Of a DNA stretch of 64,000 nucleotides, positions 2,717 through 34,669 are shown one piece after another; the stretch's first letter is position 1; the number at the start of each line of letters is the position of its first letter. The DNA is taken from the NCBI GenBank assembly GCA_963712115.1, contig CAVQGX010000040.1, positions 1 to 64,000 of the forward strand, given 5' to 3'. Below the pieces are notes generated by a model that was not told the DNA's origin, searched no databases, and was given only the letters and a program-made list of their open reading frames with translations. The DNA comes from an uncultured delta proteobacterium (GTDB lineage: Bacteria > Desulfobacterota > Syntrophobacteria > BM002). The position numbers and the translations under genes were made by a program.

Positions 2717-2724
2717 AACAATCT

Positions 2725-11467: not shown

Positions 11468-11475
11468 GGTTTAAG

Positions 11476-12556: not shown

Positions 12557-14407
12557 CTACATGAAATATGGTCCAGTGCCTGTGGACGGTTGGTCCGGTC
12601 GGACCTGCTGGTGGGAAACTATGGAACGATAGTAATCATTGCTCTCCATGAGTGACTCATGGGTGCCAATGGCAATCAGGCGGTTTTGATCCAAAAGAAA
12701 GATCCGATCGGCATTCATGATAGTAGAAAGCCGGTGGGCCACCACAAAGAGGGTCTTGTTCTCGATAACAGATGGGAGAGATAGAAAAATGGTCTTTTCC
12801 GTCTGGCTATCCAACGCAGAGGTTGGCTCATCCAGCACCAGAATGTCCGGATCTTTCACTATGGCCCGGGCTAGGGCCAGGCGCTGTTTTTGTCCTTCCG
12901 AAAGTTTAACTCCATCTTCACCGATCTCGGTCTCATAGCCTTCCGGTAGGCTCGCTATGAAATCATGGATACCAGCAACTTTGGCCGCCCTTGAGACTTC
13001 CTCTTCCCTGGCCTCTGGATTGCCGTAACGAAGGTTTTCCATAATAGATCCGGATAAAAGGAGTGTGCTCTGAGCGACGTAGCCAATCCGCTGTCGCAAT
13101 GAACCAAGTTCATAGTCACGTGCCGGTTGGCCATCGAAGTAAATTTCTCCTGCATTGGGCCTGTAGAAACGGAGGATAAGGCTCAACAACGTGGTCTTAC
13201 CCACGCCGCTGGGCCCCACAATGGCTACCCGTTCTCCGGGTTGAATGCGGAAGGAGATATTGTTGAGCACCGGCTCACGCTCGTCGTAGGAGAATGAGAC
13301 GTTGTTGAACTCAATCTCCCCTCTTAGCCTTTCTGTTTTTTCACCGGCGCCAACATTCTCTTCCGGAATGATGTCATAGAGAGCCGAAACGCGTTCCAGT
13401 GCCGCTCGGGCATTCTGCAATTGAAGGTTGGCACTGGCCAAAAACTGCGCCGGGCCGAATACATAGGCCAGGTAGGCTATAAAAGCCAGTAAAGAACCTA
13501 AACTCCAATGACCCTGAATCACCCAGTAAGCCCCCAAGGCCAGTATAGTGACCTTTGCCATTCCTGGCATGGAATTGATTACCAGATTGGCAACGGAACT
13601 TACCGTGGTCTGCTCCAGGGAAATGTGAAATGCCTCTGACAGTTGGGACATGAAACGTTTAACTGTGCGCGCTTCAGTGGAGAAGGCCTTGATCAAGGAT
13701 ACCGAAGCGAGAGACTCCTGCAACTGGCTCGTGACATTGGCCTGTTGTTCCATATCCTGGTGGCTTAAGACGTGAACTTTCTTTGAGAAGTACCTTATAC
13801 AAAGCACCAGGCCGGGGACGATTAAAAGGACACCAAGGGCAAGCCTCCATTCCAGGTAGAAAAGCAAAACCACTCCGCCGGCAAATCGCAGGAGATTACT
13901 GATTATGTAAGCAATTGTGCTTGAAAAAAACCAGCGCAGCCCATCCACGTCGGAGGAGAGACGGGAAATCAAGTAGCCTGTCTGTTTTTCATCGAAGAAA
14001 GCCTTGGGAAAGCGCAGGACATGGCTGAAAAGATCTTGCTGGATGTCGAGGGTAACCTCCTGCTCAAAGCGGGCAAAATAGAATTGCTGCAAGAGGCCTG
14101 TTAGTTTCTCCGCCAGGGAGATTCCGGCCAGCAGGAGAATGGCTACTGCCAGGAACCCCAGCTCACGACTTAGGATCACATCGTCAACCAGATAACGCAT
14201 GATGAGTGGTTGAGGGATGCCGAGAAAAGAGCTGACCATGATGAGGATGACACCCACTGCACCCTTGCGCCAATGGAGACCGATAAAAGGGTGGAGGTTC
14301 TCGAGGCTGGTCTTTAAAGACCCGTGGCTCGCCTGACCACCAATACGGTCCTCAGGTAGCTTTCGCGAAAGCCCTGATTTTAAATATGTCCACCAGCTGT
14401 TCTTCAC
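12557..14407 (-). CDS. ABC exporter, fused permease/ATPase (MsbA-like)
   Basis: Multi-TM N-domain, GPSGVGKT, LSEGQKQR, ILVLDEPTSALD, AHRLST. Confidence 0.92.
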   Translation of the reverse strand: MKNSWWTYLKSGLSRKLPEDRIGGQASHGSLKTSLENLHPFIGLHWRKGAVGVILIMVSSFLGIPQPLIMRYLVDDVILSRELGFLAVAILLLAGISLAEKLTGLLQQFYFARFEQEVTLDIQQDLFSHVLRFPKAFFDEKQTGYLISRLSSDVDGLRWFFSSTIAYIISNLLRFAGGVVLLFYLEWRLALGVLLIVPGLVLCIRYFSKKVHVLSHQDMEQQANVTSQLQESLASVSLIKAFSTEARTVKRFMSQLSEAFHISLEQTTVSSVANLVINSMPGMAKVTILALGAYWVIQGHWSLGSLLAFIAYLAYVFGPAQFLASANLQLQNARAALERVSALYDIIPEENVGAGEKTERLRGEIEFNNVSFSYDEREPVLNNISFRIQPGERVAIVGPSGVGKTTLLSLILRFYRPNAGEIYFDGQPARDYELGSLRQRIGYVAQSTLLLSGSIMENLRYGNPEAREEEVSRAAKVAGIHDFIASLPEGYETEIGEDGVKLSEGQKQRLALARAIVKDPDILVLDEPTSALDSQTEKTIFLSLPSVIENKTLFVVAHRLSTIMNADRIFLLDQNRLIAIGTHESLMESNDYYRSIVSHQQVRPDQPSTGTGPYFM

Positions 14408-14410
14408 AAA

Positions 14411-15691
14411 CTAACCTTCTTGTTTCAATGAACCTATCCGTTTGACAACCAGGTCATCAATCCATCTAAACCACCTTCTCACATAAGAGAACGGCAGCAG
14501 CCAATTACTGGAGGTCGGGTAACAAAATCGCACAATATCAGGATGGGGAAAAAGCAAACGGAGCAACGACGGAACCCTCTTTAGAAAAAGGGAGGGATTC
14601 GCCAGCGACCGTTTCAGCAAAATAGTCACCCAATGGTGCCGCATTGTGTCTGCCCAAACAGCAGACTCGTCCTCTGTGGGTCGTGGCCAGGTGGAGAAGT
14701 CGTCGAATCCGTCCGGCAGCTCGAGTCCGGCCCAGACTTGAGCCATTTTCAGGCAATGTTCCAAGGGCAGCCGAGCCCTCCAGGCGACGCTCCTCTCCTG
14801 TAATGCTTCCCAGTCATTGTCCACTTGAAGTTGTTGGGCAAGCAATGCCGTGTCATAAATCCAACTTAACCGCATTTCATTTTTATGGATCATTACTAAG
14901 TGAATTGCCGAATGAATGAGATAGTCCACTGGGTGCAGGGTTTCGAAAGCGAGAGTTGGGGTCTCAACCTTCCAACCCCTCTGAAAAAGATCCTGTATGT
15001 CAACCTCTTCACTGCCCTTAAAAAAGGGGTGCAGTTCCCAGTGGACCCAGTGCAGATCAACCGGAAACTTGTTACCGTGATTTCCTTGATGGACAAAGCA
15101 CTCCTCGCGGAAAAAGTCCCTGGCGGTTTCGAACCTCTTTGCCAGGCATCTGTAGCCCAACCTCTCCAATATACCTCGCGCCTGAACCACTTGATCCGGA
15201 ATCACCAACAGGTCAAGATCACAGCTGGACCTCATGGCTGGATCTGGATACAGTGAAAATGCCAGGGCAGGTCCACGCAGAACCAGCACTCGAATACCTT
15301 GTTCCCGGAACGCCTCAATGATTTCCTGGAGCTGCCTTTCCATGTGAAGAGAACGTACAACACTGATGAGAAAATCCTGCCTCATTTCATCGGTGATCGG
15401 TTCCGGTGGGCGACATTCCGGCGGCAAAGAGCCAATTTTTCGATAAACAAAAGGGATTATCCAGTTAGCTCGGAGGAAATTTAGCAGGCTAGACCATTCA
15501 TTTGAAGATGCCGCTGGAGCCAGGGGAGATTCATCTTTCAAAACTGATTTTACGTAGGCAAGAAGTTCATCTGAGAGATTAAGAAGGTACTTATCTGAAA
15601 TTCCACAGAGCTTCATACTCGGGTGAATGCTTTGCATCGTCTCTTTCAACGTGAAAGCTCTTTCGGAATCTATTATGATTGCTTCACTCAT
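14411..15691 (-). CDS. Uncharacterised nucleotidyltransferase (NTP_transf_5-like)
   Basis: VLVLRGPALA...YPDPAMR.S.DLDLLV, VDLHW, LSWIYD. Confidence 0.82.
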   Translation of the reverse strand: MSEAIIIDSERAFTLKETMQSIHPSMKLCGISDKYLLNLSDELLAYVKSVLKDESPLAPAASSNEWSSLLNFLRANWIIPFVYRKIGSLPPECRPPEPITDEMRQDFLISVVRSLHMERQLQEIIEAFREQGIRVLVLRGPALAFSLYPDPAMRSSCDLDLLVIPDQVVQARGILERLGYRCLAKRFETARDFFREECFVHQGNHGNKFPVDLHWVHWELHPFFKGSEEVDIQDLFQRGWKVETPTLAFETLHPVDYLIHSAIHLVMIHKNEMRLSWIYDTALLAQQLQVDNDWEALQERSVAWRARLPLEHCLKMAQVWAGLELPDGFDDFSTWPRPTEDESAVWADTMRHHWVTILLKRSLANPSLFLKRVPSLLRLLFPHPDIVRFCYPTSSNWLLPFSYVRRWFRWIDDLVVKRIGSLKQEG

Positions 15692-15750
15692 CGGAGATCA
15701 CTCTCAGCCTTGTCCACCATTACTCCAACACTCCAATCCTATAAAGTTCA

Positions 15751-15766
15751 AGCAAACTTCATGCCG
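15751..15766 (-). promoter_or_regulatory. Sigma-54 promoter of nucleotidyltransferase/ABC operon
   Basis: Reverse complement CGGCATGAAGTTTGCT (GG-N10-GC), about 60 nt upstream of ATG 15691. Confidence 0.72.
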
Positions 15767-16282
15767 CTGGTTTTGCATCTTGATCTTTGTCTGTTCGGCC
15801 AATGCCGAATGATGAAATTGCCTTTTCCATCTGCACTGAAACAAACACATTGGTGACTGAATTCGAGCTGGGAAGAGGTAGGGTGAAAACAGAAGGTCAG
15901 ACATCGGGGCCGACAGAGGTTGCATTGGCTTTCTGTGTTTGGGGTCCTAGCATTTCAAGTAACAGAAATTTCGAGATCTATAAACCATCACGTCCGCAAT
16001 TACAACCCTTGGGACAAGGAGCCAGGAGCCAGTTTTGCCGGTTTAGCCGGTTGTACTCAGCAGGCAGCAGACAGCTTGCAGCTGGCAGCAAGAAATCTCA
16101 GCTTTACAATGTCCTGTAGGAGCAAGCTTCGCTTGCGATTTGAAGGCTCCCCCCTTTTACAACAAATGACAGCGCAGCCCAGTGACTTAATGACGCCGAA
16201 GGCAAATGACAGTGAAACGTCTCGGCCCAAGAATTGCAATGGTCTGAAGGTCACAACAAGAGTCAATCCTCGGAGAATTTAC

Positions 16283-16582
16283 ATGAACACTTTAGACACC
16301 TGTTTTGCCAAAGAGAAGGATCTCGTCACCAGAGATGTCGCCGGCGAGAGCATTATCGTGCCCATCAAGGGTCACGTGGGTGATCTGGAGGGAGTTTTTA
16401 CCCTTAGTGAAGTGGGCGCCATGATCTGGCAACTCATCGACGGGCAGAAAACCGTTCGGCAGCTAATGGAAGCTGTGAAAAACGAGTACGATGTTGGGGC
16501 CGGGGAGGCGGAAAAAGACCTTTTAGATTTCCTCCGATCTCTCGAAGGTTCCGGACTGATCAAGCCGTCTGGAGCAACTTGA
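16283..16582 (+). CDS. PqqD-family RiPP recognition element
   Basis: LVTRDVAGESIIVPI...FTLSEVGAMIWQLIDG...DLLDFLRSLEGSGLI. GGAG RBS before ATG 16283; the upstream part of the called ORF is repeat-derived. Confidence 0.88.
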   Translation: MNTLDTCFAKEKDLVTRDVAGESIIVPIKGHVGDLEGVFTLSEVGAMIWQLIDGQKTVRQLMEAVKNEYDVGAGEAEKDLLDFLRSLEGSGLIKPSGAT

Positions 16583-16607
16583 AACTGACGATGCCATGCC
16601 ATCACCA

Positions 16608-16634
16608 GTCATCCCCGCGCAGGCGGGGATCCAG
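16608..16634. repeat. REP-like palindrome
   Basis: GTCATCCCCGCGCAGGCGGGGATCCAG. Confidence 0.7.
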
Positions 16635-16698
16635 TTAGGTCGAAGCCTCAAGGCATGCAAGACTGAATTATTGAACACTCTCAGGTTAGAGATAAACC

Positions 16699-17820
16699 AT
16701 GGAAACGGTTAGCTATAAGGATTTTGCCCTTGGCATTTCCCATCGGGTTTCAGGCAAGCGCATCCCCTTGCGCGGGACCATTGAGGTAACCCGTCGCTGC
16801 CCCTTAACATGTGCCCACTGTTACAACAACCTGCCCTTAAAGGATCAACAGGCCCTTGACGGCGAACTTTCCTTCGATGAGCACTGTCGTATTGTGGATG
16901 AGATTGTGGAGGCGGGCTGCTTCTGGCTCCTTTATACGGGTGGGGAGATCTTCGCCAGACAGGATTTCATTGATATCTACAAGCACGCAAAGCAGCAAGG
17001 CTTGCTCATCACCTTGTTTACCAATGCAATCCTGATCAATAAAAAAATCGCCGATTCTCTGGCCGACTGCCCACCTCACTACATTGAAATCAGCCTGTAC
17101 GGACACACCAAGAAAACCTACGAAAAGATAACCGGCAGACCAGGCTCTTTCGAACTCTGCCTGGGAGGAATCCAGTTGCTCATGGAGCGTAAGATCCCCG
17201 TCAAGCTCAAGACAGTTACCATGACATTAAACAAGCATGAGATCTGGGAGATGAAGCGGTTTGTGGAGGAAGACCTGGGCTTGGAATTCAGGTTCGATGC
17301 CATGATCAACCCGCGGCTTGACGGCTCTCAGGGCCCTCTGGCCCTCAGGCTTACACCGGAAGAGGTGGTGGACCTCGATCTGCAGGACCCGGAACGGCTG
17401 GCAGAGTGGAACCGGTTCTGCGAGCGCCATACCGGACCTCGCATCGAGTCAAAACAGTCCCATGACCTCTATCAGTGCGGTGGTGGGGTGGGCTCCTTTG
17501 CCATTGATCCTTCAGGAAACCTCACTCTCTGCGGCATGTCTGCCAGTGCCACCTATGACCTTAGACAAGGTACTTTTCGAGATGGCTGGGAAGATTTTAT
17601 TTCGAGGGTCCGACAGAAAAAGATCACCAGGCAGACCAAGTGTTTTGCCTGTGAGATCAAAGCCATGTGTGGGATGTGTCCAGCCAACGGTGAGTTAGAA
17701 AAAGGAGACCCGGAAGAACCCGTGGATTTTCTTTGCCGCGTCGCCCATCTTCGGGCACATGCCCTCGGCTTGACCGTGCCCCCCCATGGTGATTGTGAAT
17801 ACTGCAAAAATCCTCTCTAA
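16699..17820 (+). CDS. Radical SAM/SPASM peptide maturase
   Basis: CPLTCAHC, TGGE, SPASM CGGG...IDPSGNLTLC...CFAC...CGMCPA...C; adjacent to an RRE. Confidence 0.9.
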   Translation: METVSYKDFALGISHRVSGKRIPLRGTIEVTRRCPLTCAHCYNNLPLKDQQALDGELSFDEHCRIVDEIVEAGCFWLLYTGGEIFARQDFIDIYKHAKQQGLLITLFTNAILINKKIADSLADCPPHYIEISLYGHTKKTYEKITGRPGSFELCLGGIQLLMERKIPVKLKTVTMTLNKHEIWEMKRFVEEDLGLEFRFDAMINPRLDGSQGPLALRLTPEEVVDLDLQDPERLAEWNRFCERHTGPRIESKQSHDLYQCGGGVGSFAIDPSGNLTLCGMSASATYDLRQGTFRDGWEDFISRVRQKKITRQTKCFACEIKAMCGMCPANGELEKGDPEEPVDFLCRVAHLRAHALGLTVPPHGDCEYCKNPL

Positions 17821-17930
17821 AACCCCCTCCCCTAACGCCTCTAGCTCCTCTACCAGTCCCGGCGCACGATCATAGTTCGTGTCCATCTGAAATACAATAA
17901 TCTCCTCCCACCAGAGAATGTTTCGCAATT

Positions 17931-18047
17931 CGTCATCCCGGCCAAGTCCGCCTGCGGCGGACGCGAGCCGGGATCCAGAAAGAATCTTATTATATTTGGC
18001 TTTCACTGGATTCCGGATATCCGCCGGCGGCGGATTCCGGAATGACG
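17931..18047. repeat. Inverted pair of REP-like palindromes
   Basis: CGTCATCCCGG...CCGGGATCCAG and CTGGATTCCGG...CCGGAATGACG. Confidence 0.72.
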
Positions 18048-18134
18048 GGTTAGGGACATTGCGACACAGTCGCCCAGGCAACACTTTGTATAAAAATCAT
18101 AAAATTATTTAATACTTAAGAACTATTTTTATAC

Positions 18135-18670
18135 TGACTCTGTGCCTAGTCCTTAGTGCCTAGTATCAAGCTGCCTTCTGCCTTCCGTCCTCTGACTTCT
18201 GACCTCCGACCTCTGACTTCTTACCCTCTACCCTCTGCCCCATACTCCATGCCTTCCCAAATCCGCAATCCGAAATCCTATTTCCTGTCCTCCGACCACT
18301 GACCCCTACCTTCTACAATAAATGACAGCGAAGCGTATTGACCTAATGACGGCGAAGCCAAGTGACAGCGTAGCGCCTCCTTGGCCATTTGGCCAAATCT
18401 GTCCTCTGTTCTCCGACCTCTGACCTCCGACCTCTGATCTCTCATCAATTCTCTCCGCGTCCCCGCGTCGCCCCTCTGTGCCTAGTGCTTAGTGCATAGT
18501 GCCTAGTGGTCAGCTGCCTGCTGCCTGCTGCCTTCCCAAATCCGAAATCCGCAATTCGAAATCCGCATTTCTGCCCTCTGTCCTCTGACTTCTGACCTCC
18601 GACTTCTGACCTCTTTCCCTCTGCTCCATGCCCTATGCTCTATGCTCATGACCATTTAGCCAATCACCAT
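18135..18670. repeat. Long pyrimidine-rich mosaic of 7-9-mer tandem repeats with internal duplication
   Basis: TGCCTAG, CTCTGAC/CTCCGAC, AATCCGC/AATCCGA, CTGCCTG and CTATGC[CT] arrays; 18138-18290 resembles 18474-18650. Confidence 0.75.
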
Positions 18671-18888
18671 TTGTCCTCTGGCCAAGTTTTTGCAAACCCG
18701 TAGAAAAGGCTACAAAACCGGTAAATTTATAACTATATGATTCTACTTATTTTTTACTATTCCAGTGACCATTTCCGGTCGTTGTTCCCCATCTTGTCAG
18801 CAGAGGAGCAGAATTTTCCAGTTCGATTAGGAACAAAATTACATTTTAACAGCATGAAATATCTAGAAAAAACGTGAATTGCTGAATT

Positions 18889-18904
18889 TGGCACACCCTT
18901 TGCG
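18889..18904 (+). promoter_or_regulatory. Sigma-54 promoter of the giant C25 gene operon
   Basis: TGGCACACCCTTTGCG; IHF-like TAACTATATGATT at 18730-18742. Confidence 0.8.
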
Positions 18905-19018
18905 TAAAAGTTAGCCAATATTAAATGGTTGCTACAGCTTATTGCGCCGGACTTTGATAACTATGATGAAAAGACCTTGCCAAAATAACGCCCCTCTTGA
19001 TTTCTCAGGGCATATCTT

Positions 19019-22000
19019 GTGAAGTCAGCGGGGTACTCAATCTTTCGACGGACTCTCATGCTCCTTTTGTCGACCGTGATTCTTGTGGTCACGGCATCCG
19101 GGGCCCAGCCCATCACCTGGTCCGGCGAACTCCTTACGAACCCGGGATTCGAGACGGGGTTCAACCGGATGGACCAATTCGGACAAAGTGTGAGCATAGG
19201 ATATCAATGCGTCAACAACTGCGACGCGAATCCTCATTCTGGCTCCAACGTGGCATACTGGACGGCCCCTTCTGGCTCATCCAATTATCTCTTCAAACAG
19301 TCAATCTATCAGGTTATGCAAGCGACATCGATGCCGGAAAGGCAGTCATCAATGCGACAGGGTGGTTCATTTCTGATGAGTATCCCTGCTCAAGATTTGT
19401 TTTATATGCAGGTGAGGTTTTATGACGGATCGAGTAGTGAGATCGTTGCCGACAGGTATGACACCGGAACTCAAGAGGTGGCAACTTGGACGCAATACGG
19501 TATCACAGGGTACACCATTCCCAACGGCGCGCGGTCGGTTGAGATTCGTTTCAACACATGGGAGGATACCTGGGGTGGGGGTTCGGCGGACGATTTTTCG
19601 GTGGAGGTGGGAACACCATGCGGTGGTGGCTCCTTTGACCAGTGTGATACCTTCAACAGCTATTCCGGCGATCCGGATTGTCTCTCAAGGCCTACTTTTG
19701 GCAACTGGACCAGCCAGGCCGGTTCTGATGGCGCTAACGGATGGGCTACCGATCCTAATAGTCCCCGCCTCCGGCACTACCGGCCCCGGCACACCAATAG
19801 ACGGATCTTATTTGTATCTGGAAAGTTCGGCAAGTAGCCAGACTTGCGGCAGTGATGTCACTGCCGGAAGTTCTCAGTATGTAGAAAGCAATACCATTGA
19901 TGCCAGTTCATACGCATTATCATTTGAGTTTGACTGGAACATGAATGTCAATGACAATACCGATGCCTCGCTTCATGTTGATGCGTGGAACGGATCTTCA
20001 TGGGATTTAGATGTTAACGGCAGCGCGATCAACAACGGTAACAATACAGACGTATGGGTTTCACAACCGGCGATTGATCTTTCATCCTATACTAATTCGG
20101 ATTTCAAAATCAGGATCAGGTACGTCGTTGGCAATGGCACCATCTATCAGAATGATGTGGCTGTGGATAATCTTTGTATTCATGGAGATTTGCGACTAGC
20201 CACTTCCTCCCTGACCCAAACCCACTACCGCTGGCGCAATGATGATGGGGGAGAATCGGCGTCGGCGGGTTGGTGGAACGTAAGCTATCTTTACAGAAAG
20301 AAGGTCACCTTCGGAACTAGTCACTCTTTGCTCCCTCTTGGTTACACCGTCACGGTGCCCATGGATACCAGACCGGCGAACACCAACGTTGAACTAACAT
20401 CCGGCAACGATGTTCGCGTGGTGTGGCAGCCCACGGCAGGGGGTGCTGTGGAACTGGCCCGAATCGGCGACACCTGGAACAGCACCGCAACGAATATTGA
20501 CTTCCGTCTGCAGTCGGATATCGGCGCCAATCTCAACGAGGATGCGGACGGCAGCTACTACATCTATTACGGTAATGCCGCTGCGGGAACGCCGCCGACC
20601 AATGAAATGAACGTGTATTATTTTGCGGACTTTTTCACTCGAGCGAATAGCTCAACAGTAGGCAATGGCTGGACGGAATGGAACGATGGAACAAGCAATA
20701 TGTACATTCAAGGGAATGCCTTATATTCCCTAGGAAATAATGTTGGACCCCCTGATGCAGGCGTAAAGCAAAGCTTGGGCCTGGGAGCGATCACCGGCAA
20801 TTTCACTTTGTCTTTTAATGTGACCATTCAGACGAATGCAGAGGGGACCTGGACGCATTATGTCAATGTGGGAAATTCAGCCACAATGCTGAACTCCAGT
20901 CGTACGACCGGAGTGGGTCCAGGTATTTACTTCGGTGAAGGCACTCATTTTGTGCCGGACAGTGGAAATTACAATATCAGCAATGATCTGAGCGGCAATA
21001 TGGAGACCGGCGTAACCGGCGCTCAAAGTATCAGAGTGGTGGTGAATACGGGGGCAAACACCTATGACTATTACCGGGGGGGTACCCTTCGCTCATCAGG
21101 ACAGAATTTTGTCAACAACGGTGTGACCCTCAATCAGATTCGTATTGCCAATGACCAGTATAGCAACACCGAGGCTGCCTTCATTTACGACAATGTAAAG
21201 ATCGTTCTGGATGTGGCTGATGCGCCCGAGGAAACTTTGGGCAGTGAAGATGTCTATCAGCCGAGCGGCGCCACCTGGGCGGCCGACGAAGACCAACCGC
21301 TCACCGGTCTGGCCAAGGGCACGAACATCCGTGTCCGCTTCCTTGTATCCAACGAGGGAACTGGGCCTTCAGGTACGGTGGCATATCAACTTGAGGTGGC
21401 AGAAACCGCTGCCTGCGGTTCCGGCAGCTACAGTGCGGTGCCGGGTACTGCTAGTCCTGGTGATCACTGGGAAATTGTGGACTCTGGCTATATTACTGAC
21501 GGGGAAAGCACCTTTAATATTGATCCAGGTCTGACCGACCCGCTGACTGGTAATTTTACAAACGGTGAGCTGCGAGATGATAACTCCAACACAACGGGGC
21601 CCATCGATCTAGGTGCAGGCGATTTTACCGAGATCGAGTTTGCCATCCAGGCGACCAAATCTGCTACAGGCAGTGGTGATTACTGTTTTCGATTATATGA
21701 CACCACGGGTGGCGCACCTCTGGATACCTACTCCGTGTATGCACAAGTGCAGCTGGACGATGGTGTCTTTGGTTACCGAAAACCGATCACTATACCTGCC
21801 GCGAGCATGGGGGCAGGTTGCACGGCGGACCTCACTGACTTCCCGGTGCTTATCAGCATCACAGACTCCGACCTAACGAGCAAGGCGAGAAGTGATGGCT
21901 ATGACATTATCTTCAGGGCTCTGGATGACGGTACCTGCGGGGGGGCGGGGACAGCACCCTGCCACTTGGACCACGAGATTGAAAGCTTTAATAGTTCAAC

Positions 22001-25000
22001 TGGGGAACTCATTACCTGGGTCAGAATTCCCACCTTGTCCTACAACGGTGATACCACCATTTACATGTATTATGGAAACCCCAGTGTCTACGAGGCCACA
22101 GAACGTCCTGCCGGGGTCTGGGATGCCAATTACGTGGGTGTCTGGCATTTACATGAGAGTCCCAACGACGGTGTGGCTGGGCATGTGGATTCCACGGGTA
22201 ACCCTAATGTTGGCACACCACAGAACTTCCAGGATGGTGGTGGGGGCTCGACCAATGCGACTGGAAAAATAGGTGGGGCAGACTATTTTGCCGGCGACGA
22301 TGATCTTGTGGATTGCGGCAACAATGCCATACTCAATGTCAATTATGTCACGGTTGAACTCTGGATCAATATAAATAGCTGGGTGAGTGACGGCGGCATC
22401 CTGGCAAAAGGTGACAACGGTTATCGTCAGTACTGGATGTGGACATATAATTCAGCAGGGTCGTTTGAAGTTGATGAGGGTATCCATCAGAATAATGCGT
22501 GGAATTTTCCATCGGGAGCGTGGACACATCTGGTCTTAATCTATGACGGGTCCAATGTCATCACTTATACAAATGGTGTCCAAGAAAATATTTATCCTCA
22601 AACAACCGGCGTTATCGACAGCCAGACACCGAATTTATTTTTCGGATACATCCCGAGCTACAATTATTTCGACGGCAGCCTGGACGAAGTTCGCATCACC
22701 AATGGAGTGCGAGATCTCTGCTGGATTGAAACCGAATACGCCAACCAGAACAATCCGGGCGATATCGGCAGTCCCGGCTTTTACACCATCGGCGGTGAGG
22801 AAGGCGGCCCGGCCACAGCGGTTGATCTTGTCTCCTTTACGGCCAAAGGTGAGGGGAGCTCTGTTCTGGTGGAATGGGAGACGGCCCAGGAGCTCAACCA
22901 CATGGGCTTTCATCTCTATCGGGCCAGGAGCCCCTGGGGTCCCTTCACCCGGCTCACCGACAAACTGATTTCCGGCCTGACCTCTTCGGTTGTGGGCAGG
23001 AAGTACTCCTATGAGGACAAAGACGTCACCCGGGGAGAGATCTACTACTACCAGCTGGAAGACATTGACATCTTCGGCAAGAAGACCCTCCACGGCCCCA
23101 TCTGTGTGGACTGGGATGGTGACGGCCTGCCTGATGACTGGGAGATCGCCCACGGGCTAAATCCCGGTTTTGATGACGCTGATTTCGATTGGGACGGTGA
23201 CGGGCTGACCAATCTGGAAGAATACCTCCGGGGTACTGATCCCTTCAACCCGGACACTGATGGCGACGGTATCTTGGATGGTGATGAGTCCATAGAAAGA
23301 GACCCGGATGACCAAGATATAGCCGGCACCCTGGGCCCCGGCGTTTACCTGGTGGCATCTGATGAGACGGGCACTACCCTGGAACTGCGCACCGATTCCT
23401 TTGACTTCAATATTGTTCAGGCTGAAGGGCAAGAATTCGAGCGGCTCAGGATTAAAGACTACATCCACGGCTTCACCGATGTGGTGGGCAAACCCGAGCT
23501 TCCCCTCAAGGGAATCCTTTTGGATATTCCGGAAGGATATGGGGCAACCTTAAACGTTTTAGAGACGGAAGATGAGGTGCATACCGGCTACCGGGTCTAT
23601 CCGGTTCCTGAAAAATCTGTGGACGACCAGGATCAACTAGCCCATGTGGGCGAGATATTTGTCATTGATCAAGCAGCATACAGCGTGGATGCTTTCTACC
23701 CTGATGCTGCGGCTCTACTGGGCAAAGAGTATCTCTTCCGGGGCCAGCAAAAGCAGCAGATTTTCTTCCATCCCCTCACCTTCAACCCGGCCACCGGAGA
23801 GCTCCGCCACCACCGCCGCATCCGGGTTCGGGTGGACTATGTAGTCGTGGAAGAGTTGAAGACAGCCGGCCCCGAGCCACACGGTCTGGGCACCACCTGG
23901 GGTGGATAGAGATTCTTTTGATTCACTCTCCATGGTGGAGATGGCGGCGTGGGAACCTCCTTCGACATCTAAAGCTGTCTACAAGATCCTGGTCTCCGAA
24001 GAAGGCATCTACCGCCTGACCAGGAGCTGGCTCCAGGCTCAAGGTTTGACTGCGACCGAACTAGCAGAAATAGATCTCAGCCAGGTACGGCTCTACAACC
24101 TAGGCCAGGAGATTGCCATCTCTGTTTACGATCAAGACAGGGACAACCAGTTTGATCCGGAAGACTACATTGACTTTTACGGCAGGGCTGTGGATGACAG
24201 CTACGCAAAATACACCAGCCAAAATGTCTACTGGCTCACTCTTGCAGGGGGCGTGGGTGCACCAAAGAGAATGGCTGAAACTGACTCCACCCCGGGAAGT
24301 CTCACTGTTCCTGCAACCCACTCTTTTACCGTTCACCATGAGGAGGACAGAAACTATTGGGCCAGGGCTCCTGGCGGTGACTCTCTGGACCGCTACTTCT
24401 TCCACCCCTATGTAATGGGAGAAGATATATCATTCGCTGGAGATCAGGAGATCCGGTCTCCTTCGACCTTTCCTTACCAGGTGTTTCCGGCCAGGGAACT
24501 CTCAAGATAATGCTGGGCGGCACCTGGGACACCGATCACCAGGTAGCTGTCTCCTTGAATGGCACCCCTGTGGATACCTACACCTGGAGCGGTATTGGAT
24601 TTTATGAGGTTCAAATCGACAATGTCGATCTTGTGGACGGAGACAACACGGTTACCCTCGAGTGTTTGACCGGGCAGGATTCCATTGCGGTTGACTGGTT
24701 CGAGGTGACATATCCGAGGAGCTTTGAGGCTAGCAGTGACGTTTTAAGATTCACCCACGAGACAGGCTACCGCTTCCAGGTTGCCGAGTTTAGTAAAGAC
24801 GACCTTCTGGCCTTTGACATTACCTCCCCTGGCGATGTGGAGCGGCTGGTAAATTTTGCAGACCACAGGCGCCGGGCCCTACTATACCCTGGATTTTGAG
24901 CCGGAAATTGCCTCAGGAGAGAGAACCTATCTGGTTCTCACCTCGGATCAGGTAAAAACCCCGGTTGCTATCATCGAGGATGAGTACGGCAACCTGGCCA

Positions 25001-26524
25001 ATACTGCCACCGGTGCCGACTACATCCTGATCACCCAAAAAGACCTGGGTTGGGATGTAAATGGAGATCCCTATTCATGGTTGAGTGATCTTGCGGCCCT
25101 TCGCCAAGCTCAGGGTCTTAGAGTCAAGGTGGTGGATGTGGAAGATGTCTTTGATGAGTTTAGTTACGGCATCTCTGCGCCTGAGGCTATCCTGGATTTT
25201 CTCGCCCATGCTTACACCAACTGGAGTCCGCCTGCACCGCAATACGTGCTCCTGGTGGGAGACAGCACCAGAAATCCCAAAAATAATGCTGATCCTACTC
25301 GTGGGCTGGACAGTGTGACCACTTATCTTCCCACCTATTTGACTTTTACCGAGCATATGGGTGAAACCGCAACAGATGAGTGGTTTGTGAGAGTGAGCGG
25401 AGACGATGCCATCTCTGATCTCTACATTGGCAGGCTCCCGGCAAAAAGTGTTGATGAAGCCACGGTAATGGTCAACAAGATCCTTGCCTACGAGGGTGGT
25501 TTAAACACCAAGAGTTGGGAGAAAAATGTGCTCCTCCTGGCGGATGATCAGAGAGATGGCCCGGAATACGAGTATGAGGCCACTTTTGAAATCATGAACA
25601 ACGATGTGGCAGCCTTGCTTCCTGCAGCAATGAATGATCCAGTCAAGGGTTACCTAAATGACTATTTTGACGCAGATGATCTGAGGGCTGAGATAAAATC
25701 CGAGATAAATAGCGGCACTTTTATAGTCAACTACAGCGGCCACAGCTCCATCCAGATATGGGCGAATCACAGGATAAACTATGAAAATATCTTCAATAAC
25801 TCAGATGTGGCGACCTTGACCAATAGCAGCATGTATCCTTTCTTTGTCAGCATGGGCTGTCTTACCGGCCACTTTGTCTACCCGGAAGACTGGAACAACC
25901 CCTCCCTGGCCGAGGCACTGCTGCGGGCTGAAGACAAAGGGGCAGCAGCAGCCCTCATGTCCACAGGGCTTACCACCACCGAAGGCCAGTATATTTTGGA
26001 TACTGCCCTTTTTGATGCCATCTTCAACCAGGACGTCCGGGTGCTCGGCCAGGCAGTATCTGCTGCCAAGCAGACCCTTATGGCCAATGGTGACTCGACA
26101 TATGAAGAGGTTAATGAGACCTTTCTACTCTTTGGTGATCCGGCCATGACTCTTAGGGTACCACTTCCCCATAGACCTCAGGGGCTCAGTGCCCAAGGTC
26201 AGACCAGCAGTGTTGTCCTGAACTGGAATCAGGCTACAGACTGCAATGGCGGGACTGGTCTCAGGCTACAACCTCTACCGCAGCACCACACCTGGAGGAA
26301 CCTACACCAAGGTGAACACGGTCCTTATCAGCGGAACCCAATACGACGACACCTCGGTTGCAGCTGGAACCACTTACTACTACGTGGTGACCTCTGTTGA
26401 TCCTGATAACGGTGACGAGAGCGTCCAATCCCAGGAGGCGAGCGGTGGCACGCAAAGTGCAAATCATCCAGCAAGCGGAGGCGGAGGTGGAAGCTGTTTT
26501 ATAAATACTGCCACGGGAAAATGA
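19019..26524 (+). CDS. Giant (~2,500 aa) secreted multidomain C25 (gingipain/PorU-like) cysteine peptidase, split by multiple frameshifts
   Basis: Reassembled across ORFs 19019, 18997, 19422, 23902, 24510, 24856 and 26246. Order: signal peptide; LLTNPGFE beta-sandwich; MAM-like (GTTGP...YLYLESS); two DUF2341-like; LamG (FDGSLDEVRI); ATAVDLVSF Ig-like; DxDGDG Ca-binding repeats; C25 propeptide-like; YKILVSEEGIYRL; C25 core with NYSGH and SMGC; LFGDP; Fn3; GGGGGSCFINTATGK. Confidence 0.8.
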
Positions 26525-26580
26525 TTGGAGTATTGGAGTATTGGAGTGATGGAGTATTTGAAAGAAAAGTTGATTCTCAG

Positions 26581-26742
26581 ATGAAAAGTAAGAAGAAAGA
26601 ATATAAGAAACCCGAGGTAAAAAGAGTCAGTTTAGACGCCAAGTGTGCCGTCCTGGCCTTCTGCAAAACCAGTGGGAGCCTTGGCCCTGACGGGGATAAC
26701 TGTGGTGTGCCTCTCCCACCCTGTGCCAGCGAAGGCTCTTGA
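26581..26742 (+). CDS. Cys-rich RiPP precursor peptide (53 aa)
   Basis: MKSKKKEYKKPEVKRVSLDAKCAVLAFCKTSGSLGPDGDNCGVPLPPCASEGS; YxxP leader; directly upstream of S26 and kinase genes. The called N-terminal extension is TTGGAGTA repeats. Confidence 0.82.
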   Translation: MKSKKKEYKKPEVKRVSLDAKCAVLAFCKTSGSLGPDGDNCGVPLPPCASEGS

Positions 26743-26757
26743 GGGTTATCTGACACC

Positions 26758-27243
26758 GTGAAGGCAGCGGATCTTGCATTGAAAACCCAGATCTCATCGC
26801 CGAGTTTTAGTCTTTTGAGCGGTGAGTTGCTTAGCCTTGGCCTCGGAGTGCGTTTCCGAGCCCCTGGAACAAGCATGCAGCCCACCATTCGCCATGGGGA
26901 CGTGATCACGGTTAAGCCTGTAGCGCCAGCCAAACTCAAAAGGGGAGACATTATCCTCTATCGCCTTCGAAGCGGTTTTATTGCCCATCGTATAGTGAAC
27001 ATAGAGGAAAGAAACGGTTGTGGGCTCACCTTTATCTTGCGGGGCGACGCCTCCACCACCTGCGATGACCCGGTGGGACAGGAGCAGATCCTGGGCAAGG
27101 TTGTTTGCCTGGAGCGAAATCATCGAATCATCGACCCTTACCGCTGGAGAGTCAGACTATGGAGCATGCTTTACCTGTGGCTTGCGAGTTTGAAGAGAAG
27201 CGTTTCTCAGTGGTTTTTACCACAAAGTACACAAAGGCAATAA
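26758..27243 (+). CDS. S24/S26-family peptidase (Ser-His type), candidate leader peptidase
   Basis: GTSMQPTIRHGD, GDIILY, AHRIV, RGDA...D..V...QILGKV. Confidence 0.85.
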   Translation: MKAADLALKTQISSPSFSLLSGELLSLGLGVRFRAPGTSMQPTIRHGDVITVKPVAPAKLKRGDIILYRLRSGFIAHRIVNIEERNGCGLTFILRGDASTTCDDPVGQEQILGKVVCLERNHRIIDPYRWRVRLWSMLYLWLASLKRSVSQWFLPQSTQRQ

Positions 27244-27264
27244 TGCAGAGCCCATGGCGCCAAG

Positions 27265-27385
27265 AGTTTGGTAAACAGTAAACGGTGAACGGTAAACGGA
27301 ACTACTCTGCAACATTTCACCGTTTACCATTTACCGTTTACTATGATTTTCTCTATGCTCTATGCCCTATGCTCTATGCCCTTGG
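27265..27385. repeat. Inverted heptamer block (GTAAACG/CGTTTAC) and CTATGC[CT] array
   Basis: gtaaacagtaaacggtgaacggtaaacgg ... tttcaccgtttaccatttaccgtttac; ctctatgctctatgccctatgctctatgccc. Confidence 0.7.
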
Positions 27386-27428
27386 TGTTCTTCGTTTTCT
27401 TTGAGTTTTACTAGCGAGAGAGCAGCGC

Positions 27429-28277
27429 ATGTCAAAAAATTTGGCCATTAGAATTGGAGACGTGGCTATTTCCATTGAAGGAAAGGTCTTCGGGGAAATA
27501 GCGCCGGCCTATCTTCCCTTTGTCGCCCGAGGAAAAACCGACATCAGCCTTCGGCTGCGCCTCGGGATCCCTGACGTGGTGGTTGGAGAAAAAGTTTTCG
27601 AGTCCCCCCCGATCTGGACTCTGTACCGTGAAAACGGTACGTCCTCAATAGTACTTTTCCCAGAGATGGGTGACCTCCAGAGAACCCTCTTTTTGCCGCA
27701 CCATCTCAAACACGCCGACCTTTACTTTGCCGACGACTGTATTCGCTTCATCGATCCTTATTTTGGCCCAACCTTGGAACTTTTGCTCATCCATTACCTG
27801 GCAAAGGGAAGGGGAGTCATCCTTCACGCCTGCGGGATTGTTATTGACGATAGAGGAATTCTTTTTTTGGGGGAATCCGGGGCTGGTAAAAGCACGCTGG
27901 CGAGAATGTGGGCTCAAGAAAATGGTGTTGACATCCTCAGCGACGACAGGGTTATTGTGCGAAAACAGGGTCGTGAGTTCAGGATTTACGGAACGCCCTG
28001 GCATGGCGAGGCCGCATTCGGCATCCCCCGTGAAGCGAAGTTAGAGCGAATTTTTTTCCTCAGACACGGACAAGAGAATTCGCTCAAAGATATGAAAGGG
28101 CTCGATCCGGTATCGCACCTCCTCACCTGTTCCTTTCCCCCACTGTGGGACTCTCAAGGAATGGAATTTGTTCTGGAGTTCTTCAGCCAGGTAACAGCTC
28201 AGGTTCCATGCCAAGAACTCAGCTTCAGACCAGAAAAGAGCGCCCTCGCTCTGGTAAAAAAGATCAGCAAGTGGTAA
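27429..28277 (+). CDS. HPr-kinase-related P-loop protein
   Basis: ILHACGI...LFLGESGAGKST...LSDDR...YGTPWHG. Confidence 0.82.
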   Translation: MSKNLAIRIGDVAISIEGKVFGEIAPAYLPFVARGKTDISLRLRLGIPDVVVGEKVFESPPIWTLYRENGTSSIVLFPEMGDLQRTLFLPHHLKHADLYFADDCIRFIDPYFGPTLELLLIHYLAKGRGVILHACGIVIDDRGILFLGESGAGKSTLARMWAQENGVDILSDDRVIVRKQGREFRIYGTPWHGEAAFGIPREAKLERIFFLRHGQENSLKDMKGLDPVSHLLTCSFPPLWDSQGMEFVLEFFSQVTAQVPCQELSFRPEKSALALVKKISKW

Positions 28278-28495
28278 TGAAGATCCGCCTGATGACTTTG
28301 CCGCCGCCGGAGGTCTCAGGTGTCATTCACTATCAGGTGTCGGAGTATGAACCGGAACCGCAGAAGGAACCGAGAATATAAAATCTCAAATTCCGCATCG
28401 ATTTCAAGGTTTCGCTGCTCAGAGTTCGGCATTCGAATTTCCGATCTGAAGATCCTGAAACCTTTCTCTTTGAAGAATGAGACTTAACTTTGTCA

Positions 28496-29996
28496 ATGGC
28501 CAAACTCAGAAAACAGATTTCCCTACACGGCCAGAGCGCTTTTGCTGGGCCTCCTTGTAGCCCAGGTCATAGCTACCATACAGGTGTATCTGTCCAACCT
28601 CGATCTCCACCGCAAGCTATCGGCCATAAAGGCTGCCGGCTACCTCACCATACCGAACCAACGCATTATGCCCAGCCTCCAGGAATTCTCTCCCGCCTTC
28701 TTTGGCGGTCTTTTTTTCACTCTAAGTGTGGGTGCAGGTCTAACCCTACTCTCCATCGGAGCGGCCTGGGTATGGAATCGGGTGTTTTCACGAAACCGTT
28801 ATATTTTGATCGTTTTTTTGCTGCTCTGGCTTGGTTCTCTGGTGGAGCTGAATCACCGGGGCTTTTCCTTTGGGGCCACATGTTATTTTTTTGCCATACC
28901 CCCTGTGGTTTTCCTCGCTACCCTCAGATGGATACCCCCACGTCCAGGTAATAGGGGGTGGGTCCACGGAGCGCTACACACCATCCCGGTTGTGGTCCTG
29001 GCACTTTTGTGGACACCCCAAATTAACAAAAACTTTTTCGTGGACTTCAGAGACATTTTCCTCCTTTCGAATCCAGTTGGGATAAAGGTTAACGATTTTT
29101 ACTATGACTATACCCTCTACCCGGCGGAGGTCTTCAAGTCTCTGGACCAGAAGCTTCTCAAAACTTGCAGTCTGCAAAACCTTAAAAAGGGTGCCCTGCT
29201 GGCGCGGGTGGAGATGGAATTGCTCGATCGCGACTACCTCGCTGTGGAAACAGATGATGCAGTTGACCTTAAGGTGGTACAAGATGGTGGTATGCTGGCC
29301 TTCAACCATGAGGGCAGGACAATTCTCCAGACCACACTTGCAGATTTTCTCTCCAAACCGGCAACTGAATTGGAAGAATTCTCTGCTAAGAGTGACAGAC
29401 ACGGTTTCTTTCGACATTTTACCTTCTACTCTCTTCTCGTGGGGCTGCCCCTTGCCCTCTACCTTCTCCTCCATACTCTGATCCGTCTTCTCTGTTGCTT
29501 TTTTCTGGATGTTAGGATCTCTTCTTTGATTGCTTCAATACTTTGTCTAATTGTTGGCCTGAGCATCCTGATCCCATTCCACTATATGAGATGGACAGAT
29601 ATGGATTTGAAGGATGTCCCCCGGGCTCTGGCATCAGAGTCCTGGCAGAAGCGAGTTGCCGCCTTGAAGATCATAGAGCGAAAAGGGCTGGAAGTAAGTA
29701 GCTTTCAGCCCTATCCGAAGCTGCTTGCAAGCCCACACATAGCAGAGCGCTACTGGTTGGCGAGGGCACTGGCTGTAAGCCGTCGACCTGAAACCTACAG
29801 AGATCTCTTGGCCTTTCTGGATGATCCCCATCCCAATGTGGTTTCAATGGCCTTCTACGGAATTGGGCAGAGGGGAGATATAAGGGGTGTCAGCGAAATT
29901 CTAACAAGGATCAAAACATCTGATCACTGGTACAACCAATGGTATGCTTACAAAGCCTTGCGGGCCCTAGGATGGAAGCAAAGGAAATCCAGATAA
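28496..29996 (+). CDS. Multi-TM membrane protein with C-terminal HEAT-like repeats (5' frameshift near 28520)
   Basis: Several hydrophobic helices; WQKRVAALK, ERYWLARAL, LDDPHPNVVSMA, WYNQWYAYKAL. ATG 28496 joins the 28542 frame with one indel. Confidence 0.72.
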
Positions 29997-30616
29997 AAAC
30001 CCTGTTCCTCTGCCTTTCTGCAGTAATTGCGGTAGAACTGGGTACATGGGTGGTGACTTCAAAGTCCGGTTACCACCCCATGCTTATTCTGGGTGGCGCC
30101 CGTCTCCTCCAAATACTCCTGATTATCCTGATTGTTGTGACCTGGGGGAAAGGATTACCTTCCATAGGCATGGCTCGATCCGAGATGGTCTCTGGTTTGA
30201 AAAAGGGGCTGCTCTGGTCGGCCGGTTTTGGAGCGATCGGTTCCGTTGCCTGTGTTGGATTGTTCGCTGCCTCCATAAATCCTCTCATCTTAATAAAAGC
30301 CCGCCTACCCACGCAGACCGGGGATCTTGTTCTTTTTTTCATTGTTGGGGGGATGTTAGGGCCCGTAGCGGAAGAGGTCTTCTTTCGGGGAATACTCTAT
30401 GGTTTTTTGCGACGATGGGGGGTGGTAGTGGCGGTGTTTTTAAGTACCCTGCTCTTTGTACTACCCCACGCAATACATCAAAGAATCCCCATTACCCAAG
30501 TAGTGGGAGGAATCGTCTTTGCTGTAGCCTATGAGATCAGCGGCAGCCTGATTGTCCCCATCACCATCCATGCACTGGGCAACCTGGCCATCTTCACCCT
30601 CTCCTTGGTATTTTAG
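29972..30616 (+). CDS. CPBP family (type II CAAX/Rce1-like) intramembrane protease
   Basis: PVAEEVFFRG, LFVLPH, IHALGN motifs. Confidence 0.88.
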   Translation: MEAKEIQIKTLFLCLSAVIAVELGTWVVTSKSGYHPMLILGGARLLQILLIILIVVTWGKGLPSIGMARSEMVSGLKKGLLWSAGFGAIGSVACVGLFAASINPLILIKARLPTQTGDLVLFFIVGGMLGPVAEEVFFRGILYGFLRRWGVVVAVFLSTLLFVLPHAIHQRIPITQVVGGIVFAVAYEISGSLIVPITIHALGNLAIFTLSLVF

Positions 30617-34388: not shown

Positions 34389-34669
34389 CCAAGATCGGAT
34401 CTAGGCCGGGCATTAATGCTTTAAACCACTTGACGGGAAACGCGGCTACAAAAATAGGGATCAACACCTGTGGCCATTGGCATAAGCTGATGGCTGAGCG
34501 CTGATAGCCGATCGCGCTCATCGAAAACGGCTTTTCGGATGAGCACTAATCATAAACTGTTGAGGCATGGATTTTCCCTGGCTGGCTTGACATCTATTAT
34601 GAAATCTAGTAGGGTCCGCCGGAAATCAACGGGGTGCCAGGCCTCAACCAATTGAGGTGGATTGGAACC

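Follow-up and report, generated by a model that had tools for sequence, protein, structure and literature searches.

A probable radical SAM-containing relative of the LPP peptide pathway next to an exopolysaccharide locus of an uncultured delta proteobacterium

Closest described systems

The subject of this study is a gene cluster at positions 12557-30616 of a 64,000-nucleotide stretch of DNA (the window), which is contig C40 of a 70-contig, 94% complete genome (G000) of an uncultured delta proteobacterium from the Desulfobacterota. The cluster combines a PqqD-type recognition element (RRE) for ribosomally synthesised and post-translationally modified peptides, a radical S-adenosylmethionine (SAM) enzyme, a short Cys-bearing precursor peptide, an S26 peptidase, a protein resembling HPr kinase (HprK), a nucleotidyltransferase-fold protein and an ABC exporter. 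Judged by its resemblance to described pathways, the locus is probably a ribosomal-peptide maturation cassette and a radical SAM-containing relative of the linear polyphosphorylated peptide (LPP) pathway. The arrangement of its genes is far beyond chance; the same order recurs in 80 loci fetched from other genomes and in a paralogous copy in the same genome.

The SynChlorMet (SCM) cassette, which comprises ScmC, ScmD, ScmE and ScmF, has been defined bioinformatically in TIGRFAMs/NCBIfam, and its product is unknown. For the sactipeptide and ranthipeptide pathways, which include the maturases AlbA, SkfB, PapB and StsB, we know of neither a kinase nor an S26 peptidase. The LPP clusters of Bacillota (lppA-K-B-S-D-N) have been described only recently (Popov et al., Nat Commun 2026;17:6633; PMC13381572). 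According to the available part of that article, these clusters sit in capsular polysaccharide loci, LppK polyphosphorylates Ser, placing up to four phosphates on core Ser3, and LppS (catalytic residues S29/H68/D93) cleaves the leader with the help of the RRE. The authors regard the family as confined to Bacillota, state that its role is unknown and speculate about biofilms. Among lasso peptides, the kinase PsmK acts on the C-terminal Ser, and attachment of a hexose to the resulting phosphate depends on PsmN, as the consulted part of PMC6993621 reports; the initial annotation of the locus had correctly invoked this precedent.

Composition of the cassette

Every gene that the initial annotation listed at 12557-30616 is present on the strand it gave, as seen in Pfam/NCBIfam scans and by direct reading, and the gene content supports its view of a non-lasso peptide-maturation system with an RRE, a radical SAM enzyme, an HprK-type kinase and a PF14907 transferase. 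The PqqD-family RRE (PF05402, 59 bits) is a discrete protein. Its domain forms the C-terminal end of an open reading frame (ORF) at 15920-16582, which is open from 15920; the start was set at 16283 because the paralogue has 99 amino acids (aa), and the likely true gene therefore spans 16283-16582 (+) and encodes 99 aa.

The radical SAM gene follows at 16699-17820 (+). Direct reading of its product reveals a CX3CX2C motif at C34/38/41 and a seven-Cys C-terminus of the SPASM type, and the Pfam SPASM model gave no match to this protein in a local scan. PqqE and SkfB are its best solved relatives. Among curated models, MftC aligns over the full length (E 1.3e-23) and PqqE over a part (E 3e-23), both far under their cut-offs; the scores for the maturase models were 57.3 bits vs a cut-off of 850 for AlbA, 77.9 vs 625 for StsB and 45.2 vs 300 for SkfB, and PapB was not among the 25 best matches.

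The precursor gene (26581-26742, +) encodes 53 aa with a YKKPEV leader, an AVLA/FCK junction and a C-terminal GS. Its start is ambiguous, as an alternative start at 26521 would give 73 aa. Complex prediction lends weak support to binding of the precursor leader by the RRE: the pair reached an ipSAE of 0.47 vs 0.03 for the best control, with at least 88% of contacts agreeing between runs and a partner pLDDT of at least 51. In the benchmark, 58 of 80 solved complexes and 2 of 110 mismatched pairs attained the mark, but at an ipSAE of 0.60 or below just 7 of the 80 solved complexes did so, along with both of the passing mismatches. The pass may also reflect likeness to solved RRE-leader complexes.

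The S26 peptidase (26758-27243, +) is a soluble, archaeal/SipW-type protein similar to LppS (TIGR02228, 60 bits vs a cut-off of 51.85). It has the catalytic motifs GTSMQPT (Ser), AHR (His) and GD (Asp) and no hydrophobic segment, and by analogy it is likely the leader peptidase.

The putative kinase (27429-28277, +) is a P-loop protein of the HprK/PEPCK fold and the Pfam ScmC family and resembles LppK and PadeK. Its GESGAGKS P-loop and DD metal motif are invariant or nearly so among 57 sequences. The predicted structure (pLDDT 93.3) matches the folds of HprK/P and PEPCK (E ~5e-6), and a sequence-only search of the PDB returned P-loop-level matches only, the best being HprK (E 0.039). A set of 5.8 billion proteins contains 1246 homologues, and all 120 homologues among the matches listed carry Pfam PF27840 (ScmC). 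At one locus (L016 1441-3462, G039:C52), the radical SAM and kinase parts are fused into a single protein of 673 aa, followed by a second radical SAM gene.

Two genes on the opposite strand complete the set. One encodes an MsbA/HlyB-type ABC exporter without a peptidase domain, similar to LppD (12557-14407, -; TIGR02204, E 4e-135, under the equivalog cut-off). The other encodes an LppN/PsmN-like protein of the nucleotidyltransferase fold (14411-15691, -; PF14907, NTP_transf_5, 166.7 bits vs a cut-off of 31.2), in which a D158-x-D160 motif is present.

Spread of the cassette and of its precursor

A search of species-representative genomes with a kinase profile and tblastn yielded at least 565 confirmed loci. 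Eighty of these were fetched for context, all but one from entries titled metagenome-assembled genomes (MAGs), and their genes were called with hidden Markov models (HMMs) built from the window's own proteins; many of the fetched contigs are short, so that counts of genes in the 80 loci are lower bounds. The usual order is PqqD, radical SAM enzyme, precursor, kinase and S26 peptidase, often followed by the nucleotidyltransferase and the ABC pump. The kinase was found in all 80 loci, the precursor in 72, the radical SAM enzyme in 66, the S26 peptidase in 65, PqqD in 62, the nucleotidyltransferase in 45, an MsbA-like ABC protein in 21 and an ABC-2 permease in nine. According to their titles, the hosts belong to Desulfobacterota, Acidobacteriota (including Aminicenantes), Chloroflexota, Nitrospirota, Omnitrophota, Armatimonadota, KSB1, Desantisbacteria, Aerophobetes, Planctomycetes, Myxococcota and Bdellovibrionota, and the closest loci come from Syntrophobacterales or Syntrophobacteria MAGs.

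The precursor family is strongly conserved. Its members, 75 distinct sequences, carry a leader of the form YxKPx[ILV], the junction AVLGxCK, three Cys that are conserved and, at the C-terminus, a Gly-Ser that is close to invariant. When 50 sequences were aligned, P11, C28, K29 and C41 proved invariant, and Y8, K10, L18, A23, L25, C48, G52 and S53 are conserved in at least 90%, which bears out the expectation of the initial annotation that homologues with conserved Cys and a terminal Ser would exist. The CK and GP motifs of the core are conserved as well, the three Cys span approximately 20 residues, and the terminal Ser is the only conserved hydroxyl residue of the core. The annotation had described a four-Cys precursor. 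The peptide of the window does have four Cys, but only three are conserved in the family; the fourth lies in the leader and is specific to its clade. Neither Pfam nor NCBIfam models matched the window's precursor.

A second copy of the cassette is located on contig C39 of the same genome, and its precursor is 83% identical. The genes there are arranged as PqqD, radical SAM enzyme, an insertion, precursor, S26 peptidase, kinase, HEAT protein, CPBP protease, Wzc-SH3 and Wza, and no C25 gene was found at this paralogous locus. The insertion that splits this copy between the radical SAM and precursor genes consists of approximately 2 kb of small opposite-strand genes (L005 12200-14200), which, by eye, look like toxin-antitoxin pairs. 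In a related genome (G011:C1:265768-265872), a 35-residue kinase remnant lies just upstream of a HEAT gene, 3.25 Mb away from an intact cassette; it looks like a decayed second copy.

Recurring neighbours

The window's cassette lies close to a gene of approximately 2,500 codons for a giant secreted C25 (gingipain/PorU-like) protein (19019-26524, +), and proteins of this family recur near the cassette elsewhere. A C25 protein was found within 10 kb in 27 of the 80 loci (not 29, since the C25_e profile matches in L073 and L079 are S26 ORFs and were dropped), and its gene often directly abuts that of the kinase or the S26 peptidase. Wzc or Wza is near the cassette in 14 loci, and any neighbour of the exopolysaccharide (EPS) type (Wzc, Wza, AAA_22, HD_5, DegT or WbqC) in 23. 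Twenty-five loci have flanks of 8 kb or more on both sides; of these, a C25 gene is present in 12, an EPS-type gene in 10 and one or the other in 18. The linkage to C25 and Wzc/Wza genes on which the initial annotation had staked its reading is, on these HMM-based counts, found across phyla. Single-linkage clusters that merged the S26, nucleotidyltransferase, C25 and Wza groups were excluded from the counts, as were several large unnamed clusters, one example from which had no Pfam match.

Within the genus, the giant C25 type (E ~1e-82) occurs in five of 17 related genomes, which are not independent samples, and in G000 itself, in every case together with the kinase; it was found in none of the nine genus genomes without the kinase. 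The claim that the system is built around the C25 protease could not be upheld. The paralogous locus lacks such a gene, and of five cassette-bearing whole genomes, two complete ones have no PF01364 match at all and two others have C25 only far from the cassette. Because of the two genomes without PF01364, C25 is to be regarded as a frequent accessory and not as the centre of the system.

Two membrane proteins encoded downstream of the kinase form another accessory module. One is polytopic and has C-terminal HEAT repeats (28542-29996, +; Pfam and direct reading), and the other is a CPBP/Rce1-type intramembrane protease (29939-30616, +; Pfam). The HEAT gene occurs in 10 and the CPBP gene in nine of the 80 loci, in Desulfobacterota only. 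An HD_5 and AAA_22 pair (10 loci each) accompanies the cassette in other phyla. The HEAT gene is also present in nine of the 17 genus genomes, eight of which have the kinase.

Comparison with described pathways

The cassette shares with the LPP pathway, as far as the consulted part of PMC13381572 describes it, a stand-alone RRE, a kinase resembling HprK, an archaeal/SipW-type S26 peptidase, an MsbA-like pump and an uncharacterised NTP transferase; the kinase, transferase and pump were set against LppK, LppN and LppD by description. A YxxP-type leader, the lack of a lasso cyclase and a site in or beside polysaccharide loci are further points of likeness. The two also differ. A radical SAM/SPASM gene lies here between the RRE and the precursor and is found in 66 of the 80 loci, whereas the LPP product is linear. 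The junction reads AVL[GA]xCK, with three Cys and a C-terminal GS, in contrast to VLxHQxIxFETxxS in LPP; of the full motif YxxPxVLxHQxIxFETxxS, only the YxxPx[ILV] part is present here, with no conserved Ser at core position 3. C25, Wzc/Wza and HD_5/AAA_22 neighbours are specific to the present family, and its hosts are Desulfobacterota, Acidobacteriota, Chloroflexota, Nitrospirota, Omnitrophota and others, whereas the LPP paper describes its clusters as confined to Bacillota.

The initial annotation had stated that no characterised pathway has this combination of genes. For the set of kinase, RRE, S26 peptidase, pump and nucleotidyltransferase, this has been overtaken by the LPP paper; the radical SAM enzyme, the Cys-bearing core, the link to C25 and the range of hosts outside Bacillota are new relative to the available text of that article, in which the words radical SAM, SPASM, rSAM, C25 and gingipain are absent. 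Literature searches surfaced no paper on an HPr kinase with a radical SAM enzyme outside the lasso context, on SynChlorMet, on NTP_transf_5 or on the CFI-box, although such searches had missed the LPP paper too.

A PqqD-like protein, a radical SAM/SPASM enzyme and an HprK-like protein of the ScmC family are also features of SCM cassettes, and an SCM-like cassette elsewhere in the window (927-5524) likewise has an S26 peptidase. Unlike SCM, the present cassette has one radical SAM enzyme rather than two, a different precursor, and a nucleotidyltransferase and ABC pump in addition. Its proteins miss the SCM equivalogs (ScmC, 15.5 bits vs a cut-off of 125; ScmD, 29.3 vs 100; ScmE, 68.7 vs 400; ScmF, 55.9 vs 400), and neither the precursor family nor the single-radical SAM cassette has a curated model at cut-off in the libraries searched.

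The phosphorylated lasso peptides paeninodin (PadeK) and pseudomycoidin (PsmK, PsmN), in so far as the consulted text covers them, offer an HprK-family kinase and a transferase of the nucleotidyltransferase family, along with a stand-alone RRE, a leader of the YxxP type and an ABC pump. They differ in that the leader peptidase is here of the S26 type and any cross-link would be made by the radical SAM enzyme. Neither a lasso cyclase nor a B2 transglutaminase-type protease is among the Pfam/NCBIfam matches of the cassette genes, and the sole Asn synthase (57664-59581), a protein with a GATase domain, is encoded 27 kb off in the EPS locus. Sactipeptide and ranthipeptide maturases (AlbA, SkfB, PapB, StsB) share with the present enzyme a SPASM-type Cys cluster, a Cys-bearing substrate core and a presumed dependence on an RRE, but the RRE is here a separate protein rather than an N-terminal domain, and the model matches are weak.

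Finally, the giant C25 protein resembles PorU (PDB 6za2; PMC7468200, consulted in part) in its Peptidase_C25 domain with His and Cys, its PorU-like N-terminal region and the surface-glycan genes in its neighbourhood. It differs in its size of approximately 2,500 aa, its lectin- and adhesin-like domains, its CFI-box-like tail, its origin in a Desulfobacterota MAG and a score under the PorU equivalog cut-off.

A proposed maturation pathway

The steps proposed for the radical SAM-containing relative of the LPP pathway all rest on homology. The PqqD-type RRE would bind the Y-x-K-P-x-[ILV] leader of the 53-aa precursor and hand the precursor to the enzymes. The radical SAM/SPASM enzyme might then cross-link the core via its three conserved Cys, most likely by thioether bridges of the sactipeptide or ranthipeptide type. 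The HprK/ScmC-type kinase would place one or more phosphates on Ser, for which the near-invariant C-terminal Ser is the best candidate, as in paeninodin and pseudomycoidin, and the PF14907 transferase may decorate this phosphate, much as PsmN does with a hexose. Removal of the leader would fall to the soluble SipW-type S26 peptidase, probably by a cut after AVL[GA] that would leave a core of approximately 27 residues, and the MsbA-like ABC pump would export the product. Accessory to this core set are the neighbouring genes for the giant C25 protein, for the HEAT/CPBP pair and for EPS; the recurrence of C25 and EPS genes nearby suggests a role at the surface of the cell or in its matrix, not in the cytoplasm.

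Several observations weigh against parts of this pathway. In the available text on LPP (PMC13381572), the phosphosite is core Ser3 and not the C-terminal Ser, and LppN had no detectable activity; therefore, both the phosphosite and the nucleotidyltransferase step proposed here are guesses. The precursor family conserves no Ser close to where cleavage is predicted, and the motif that joins leader and core in LPP is absent from the precursor. For the radical SAM enzyme, every curated maturase model stays far under its cut-off, and these models do not fix the reaction type. The nucleotidyltransferase and the ABC protein were not found within 10 kb in many of the 80 loci, and the recurring link with C25 is unexplained by an LPP-like reading.

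The half of the pathway made up of the kinase, RRE, S26 peptidase, pump and transferase was first characterised in 2026 (PMC13381572, as seen in part). In the present family, the same set of enzymes occurs across many uncultured phyla, combined with a radical SAM enzyme and with a far more conserved, Cys-bearing core. Its recurring partners, the giant secreted C25 protein and the Wzc/Wza export genes, make the suspected link between such peptides and biofilms or the cell surface directly testable.

Alternative explanations

The link with C25 invites an explanation in which the mature phospho- or glycopeptide is a handle or substrate of the C25 enzyme, joined via its new N-terminus or its invariant Lys to surface proteins or to itself, while a C-terminal phospho-sugar ties it to polysaccharide; such a system would be a counterpart, outside Bacteroidota, of sortase attachment in type IX secretion. 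We consider this unlikely, even though a C25 gene lies within 10 kb in about a third of the loci (27 of 80), often abutting the cassette, the giant type was found in the genus only in kinase-bearing genomes (five related ones and G000, against none of the nine without kinase), and the catalytic His and Cys are kept. PorU itself is described as a sortase whose cargo becomes amide-linked at the C-terminus to a seryl or glycyl sugar that Wbp/Vim enzymes make, and the DegT, GFO/IDH/MocA and AsnB families of the EPS locus are the types named WbpE, WbpB and WbpS in the part of PMC7468200 that was available. Genes for DegT, AsnB and oxidoreductases are, however, common to any EPS locus, and scores of 197.5-266.7 bits fall short of the PorU equivalog cut-off of 420. 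The C25-free genomes (two of five, with two more having C25 only far off) weaken a PorU-like handle, as does the C25-free paralogous locus of the same genome. A more elaborate form, in which the C-terminal Ser of a cross-linked peptide would carry a phosphate-sugar and a PorU-like C25 transpeptidase would use the peptide to tether giant surface proteins, some of them with Gly-run/CFI-box tails, to exopolysaccharide, appears to us a long shot. If true, it would amount to ribosomal-peptide-based anchoring at the cell surface outside Bacteroidota.

CPBP/Abi-type proteins are commonly annotated as self-immunity factors of bacteriocin producers. On this precedent, the product might be an exported, bacteriocin-like antimicrobial, with the CPBP and HEAT proteins providing immunity, the ABC pump serving as the dedicated exporter and the EPS and C25 genes being incidental; radical SAM thioether peptides do include antimicrobials, among them subtilosin and SKF, and AlbA and SkfB are among the weak matches of the radical SAM enzyme. 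The core is, however, conserved over many phyla, unlike the fast-diverging cores usual in bacteriocins, HEAT and CPBP genes occur in just 9-10 of the 80 loci, and the C25 and EPS links are too recurrent to be incidental, all of which makes an antimicrobial product improbable. It is more doubtful still that the peptide is sacrificed as a scaffold in making a small molecule or cofactor, as happens with PQQ and mycofactocin, its C-terminal residues being modified by the radical SAM enzyme and released by the peptidase before the kinase and nucleotidyltransferase turn the fragment into a phosphorylated or nucleotide-linked compound. The nearly invariant C-terminal Gly-Ser, the full-length alignment with MftC (E 1.3e-23), the partial one with PqqE (E 3e-23) and the standing of PqqE as joint best solved relative with SkfB are consistent with it, but all those scores are far under cut-off. 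The conservation of three Cys over approximately 20 residues together with the CK and GP motifs suggests that the whole core matters, and an MsbA-like exporter and S26 leader peptidase fit a peptide product, as described for LPP in the consulted part of PMC13381572.

The giant C25 gene

The C25 gene (domain scans, orthologues) is present as the initial annotation had claimed, but in this assembly it is broken into at least six open pieces in alternating frames over 19019-26524, with breaks near 19.4-19.8 kb and at 23882, 24443, 24861 and 26257. Its orthologues are single ORFs (G008, at least 1798 aa; G010, at least 2383 aa; L029, at least 2328 aa; L045, 2961 aa). The region 19000-26600 was compared with Logan contigs from four public sediment/estuary runs. 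Contigs with one to five other differences over 270-547 bases are shorter by one base at 23882 (three runs), by two at 24443 (four runs), and by one each at 24861 (two runs) and 26257 (three runs, in only part of the depth). The missing bases (1, 2, 1 and 1) match the frame junctions exactly, and their removal restores a single frame across four of the five breaks. The break at the 5' end (19.4-19.8 kb) could not be placed: the contigs there are approximately 96% identical, with four insertions and one deletion, and the N-termini of the orthologues do not align.

Since near-identical contigs lack the extra bases at the frame junctions, the breaks are most likely assembly errors or strain variants, and the gene appears to be intact in the population. 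A decayed pseudogene was considered and rejected, given the near-identical public contigs without the extra bases at four of five breaks. The locus is thus an example of how assembly indels can hide a gene of 2,500 residues. Further overlapping-frame breaks in the window affect Wzc-SH3 (33183-33334), which is a single 1114-aa ORF in the paralogous locus, AsnB (57664-59581) and probably the start of the HEAT gene (~28490-28545), whose 5' end another indel has probably removed; small indels seem to be numerous in this contig.

The domains of the C25 protein are a signal peptide, DUF2341, LamG, TSP3, a C25 propeptide, a PorU-like N-terminal region, Peptidase_C25 (25021-26154; PF01364, 279.8 bits) and an FN3-like region. 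Its catalytic residues, the His of GH and the Cys of GC, line up with the catalytic motifs of gingipain R. Against the T9SS sortase equivalog NF033707, with its cut-off of 420, the window piece scores 197.5 bits and an intact orthologue 266.7 bits.

The protein ends in a Gly run and a CFI-box-like tail (26474-26512, +), which comes near the cut-off of NF041763 (15.9) with 14.4 bits in isolation, 15.6 in a genome search and 16 with frame neighbours; this model also matches 10 of 14 control genomes at E<=1. The same tail is found on C25 orthologues of Desulfobacterota. Nine ORFs of G000 end in a Gly run and a CFI-box-like motif (on contigs C3, C12 (two), C28, C38, C39, C42 and C48, and at 26222-26524 of the window), and several of them share a conserved domain before the tail; they resemble a group of cargo proteins that share a single C-terminal signal. 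The 14-position CFI-box model has weak matches in 17 of 17 genus genomes, vs nine of 17 for the HEAT gene, and matches 10 of 14 control genomes at E<=1; no sorting pair of the tails and the HEAT/CPBP proteins is proposed on this basis. In a related genome, the last ORF of locus L103 (G010:C146; 3-7154 and 8230-9764) ends with the residues that open the first one, which indicates either a giant C25 gene in tandem or overlapping contig ends.

The initial annotation placed the C25 gene at the head of a sigma-54-led run of genes. A -24/-12 consensus of the sigma-54 type (exact TGGCAC-N5-TTGC, 18889-18903, +) does lie 116 nt upstream of the C25 start; the claim of a sigma-54-led run is founded on this consensus match alone, which is not functional proof. 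The window contains two exact matches to this consensus, and the other (5483-5497, minus strand) heads the SCM-like cassette.

Flanking and intergenic features

Upstream of the exporter gene lie an HD_5 (HD-GYP-like) gene (10472-11467, +) and an AAA_22 ATPase gene (11464-12276, +), both identified with Pfam. Downstream of the CPBP gene, an EPS locus fills 31046 to 64000, the end of the window, according to domain scans. It starts with a Wzc-type BY-kinase, to which SH3b repeats are fused following a frameshift, and a Wza-like exporter (31046-36310, +), and it also encodes a second Wzc, six GT4 and one GT2 glycosyltransferases, a flippase, methyltransferases, a radical SAM/SPASM protein, AsnB, WbqC, DegT and a GFO/IDH/MocA-family protein. 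The radical SAM/SPASM gene of this locus (45991-46998), which is of a third kind, lies between the flippase gene and a glycosyltransferase gene.

The intergenic regions of the cassette contain an AT-rich element and several repeats. An AT-rich element read from the sequence (18084-18137, +) is common to the window and the paralogous contig C39 locus, where it lies approximately 130 nt upstream of the precursor. A field of approximately 500 bp between the radical SAM gene and the C25 promoter region (18142-18647) consists of differing 7-base tandem repeats in three to seven copies each, with units that include GTGCCTA, TCTGACC, TCCGAAA and GCTGCCT; the paralogous locus has related repeats upstream of its precursor. 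Four copies of an 8-base, GGAG-containing repeat (26526-26558, +) lie between the C25 gene and the precursor. For the last bin (26366-600), the depth of sediment metagenome contigs climbs to 945, and loose ends occur on either side; the short repeat is therefore present in very many other contexts in sediment metagenomes.

The SCM-like cassette (927-5524, -) is separate from the one described above. It has two PqqD genes, an HprK-like gene, the S26 peptidase gene and two radical SAM/SPASM genes, one ScmE-like (219.7 bits) and one ScmF-like (312 bits), both under the 400-bit cut-offs. An ORF of 84 aa at 1408-1662 is a candidate for its precursor.

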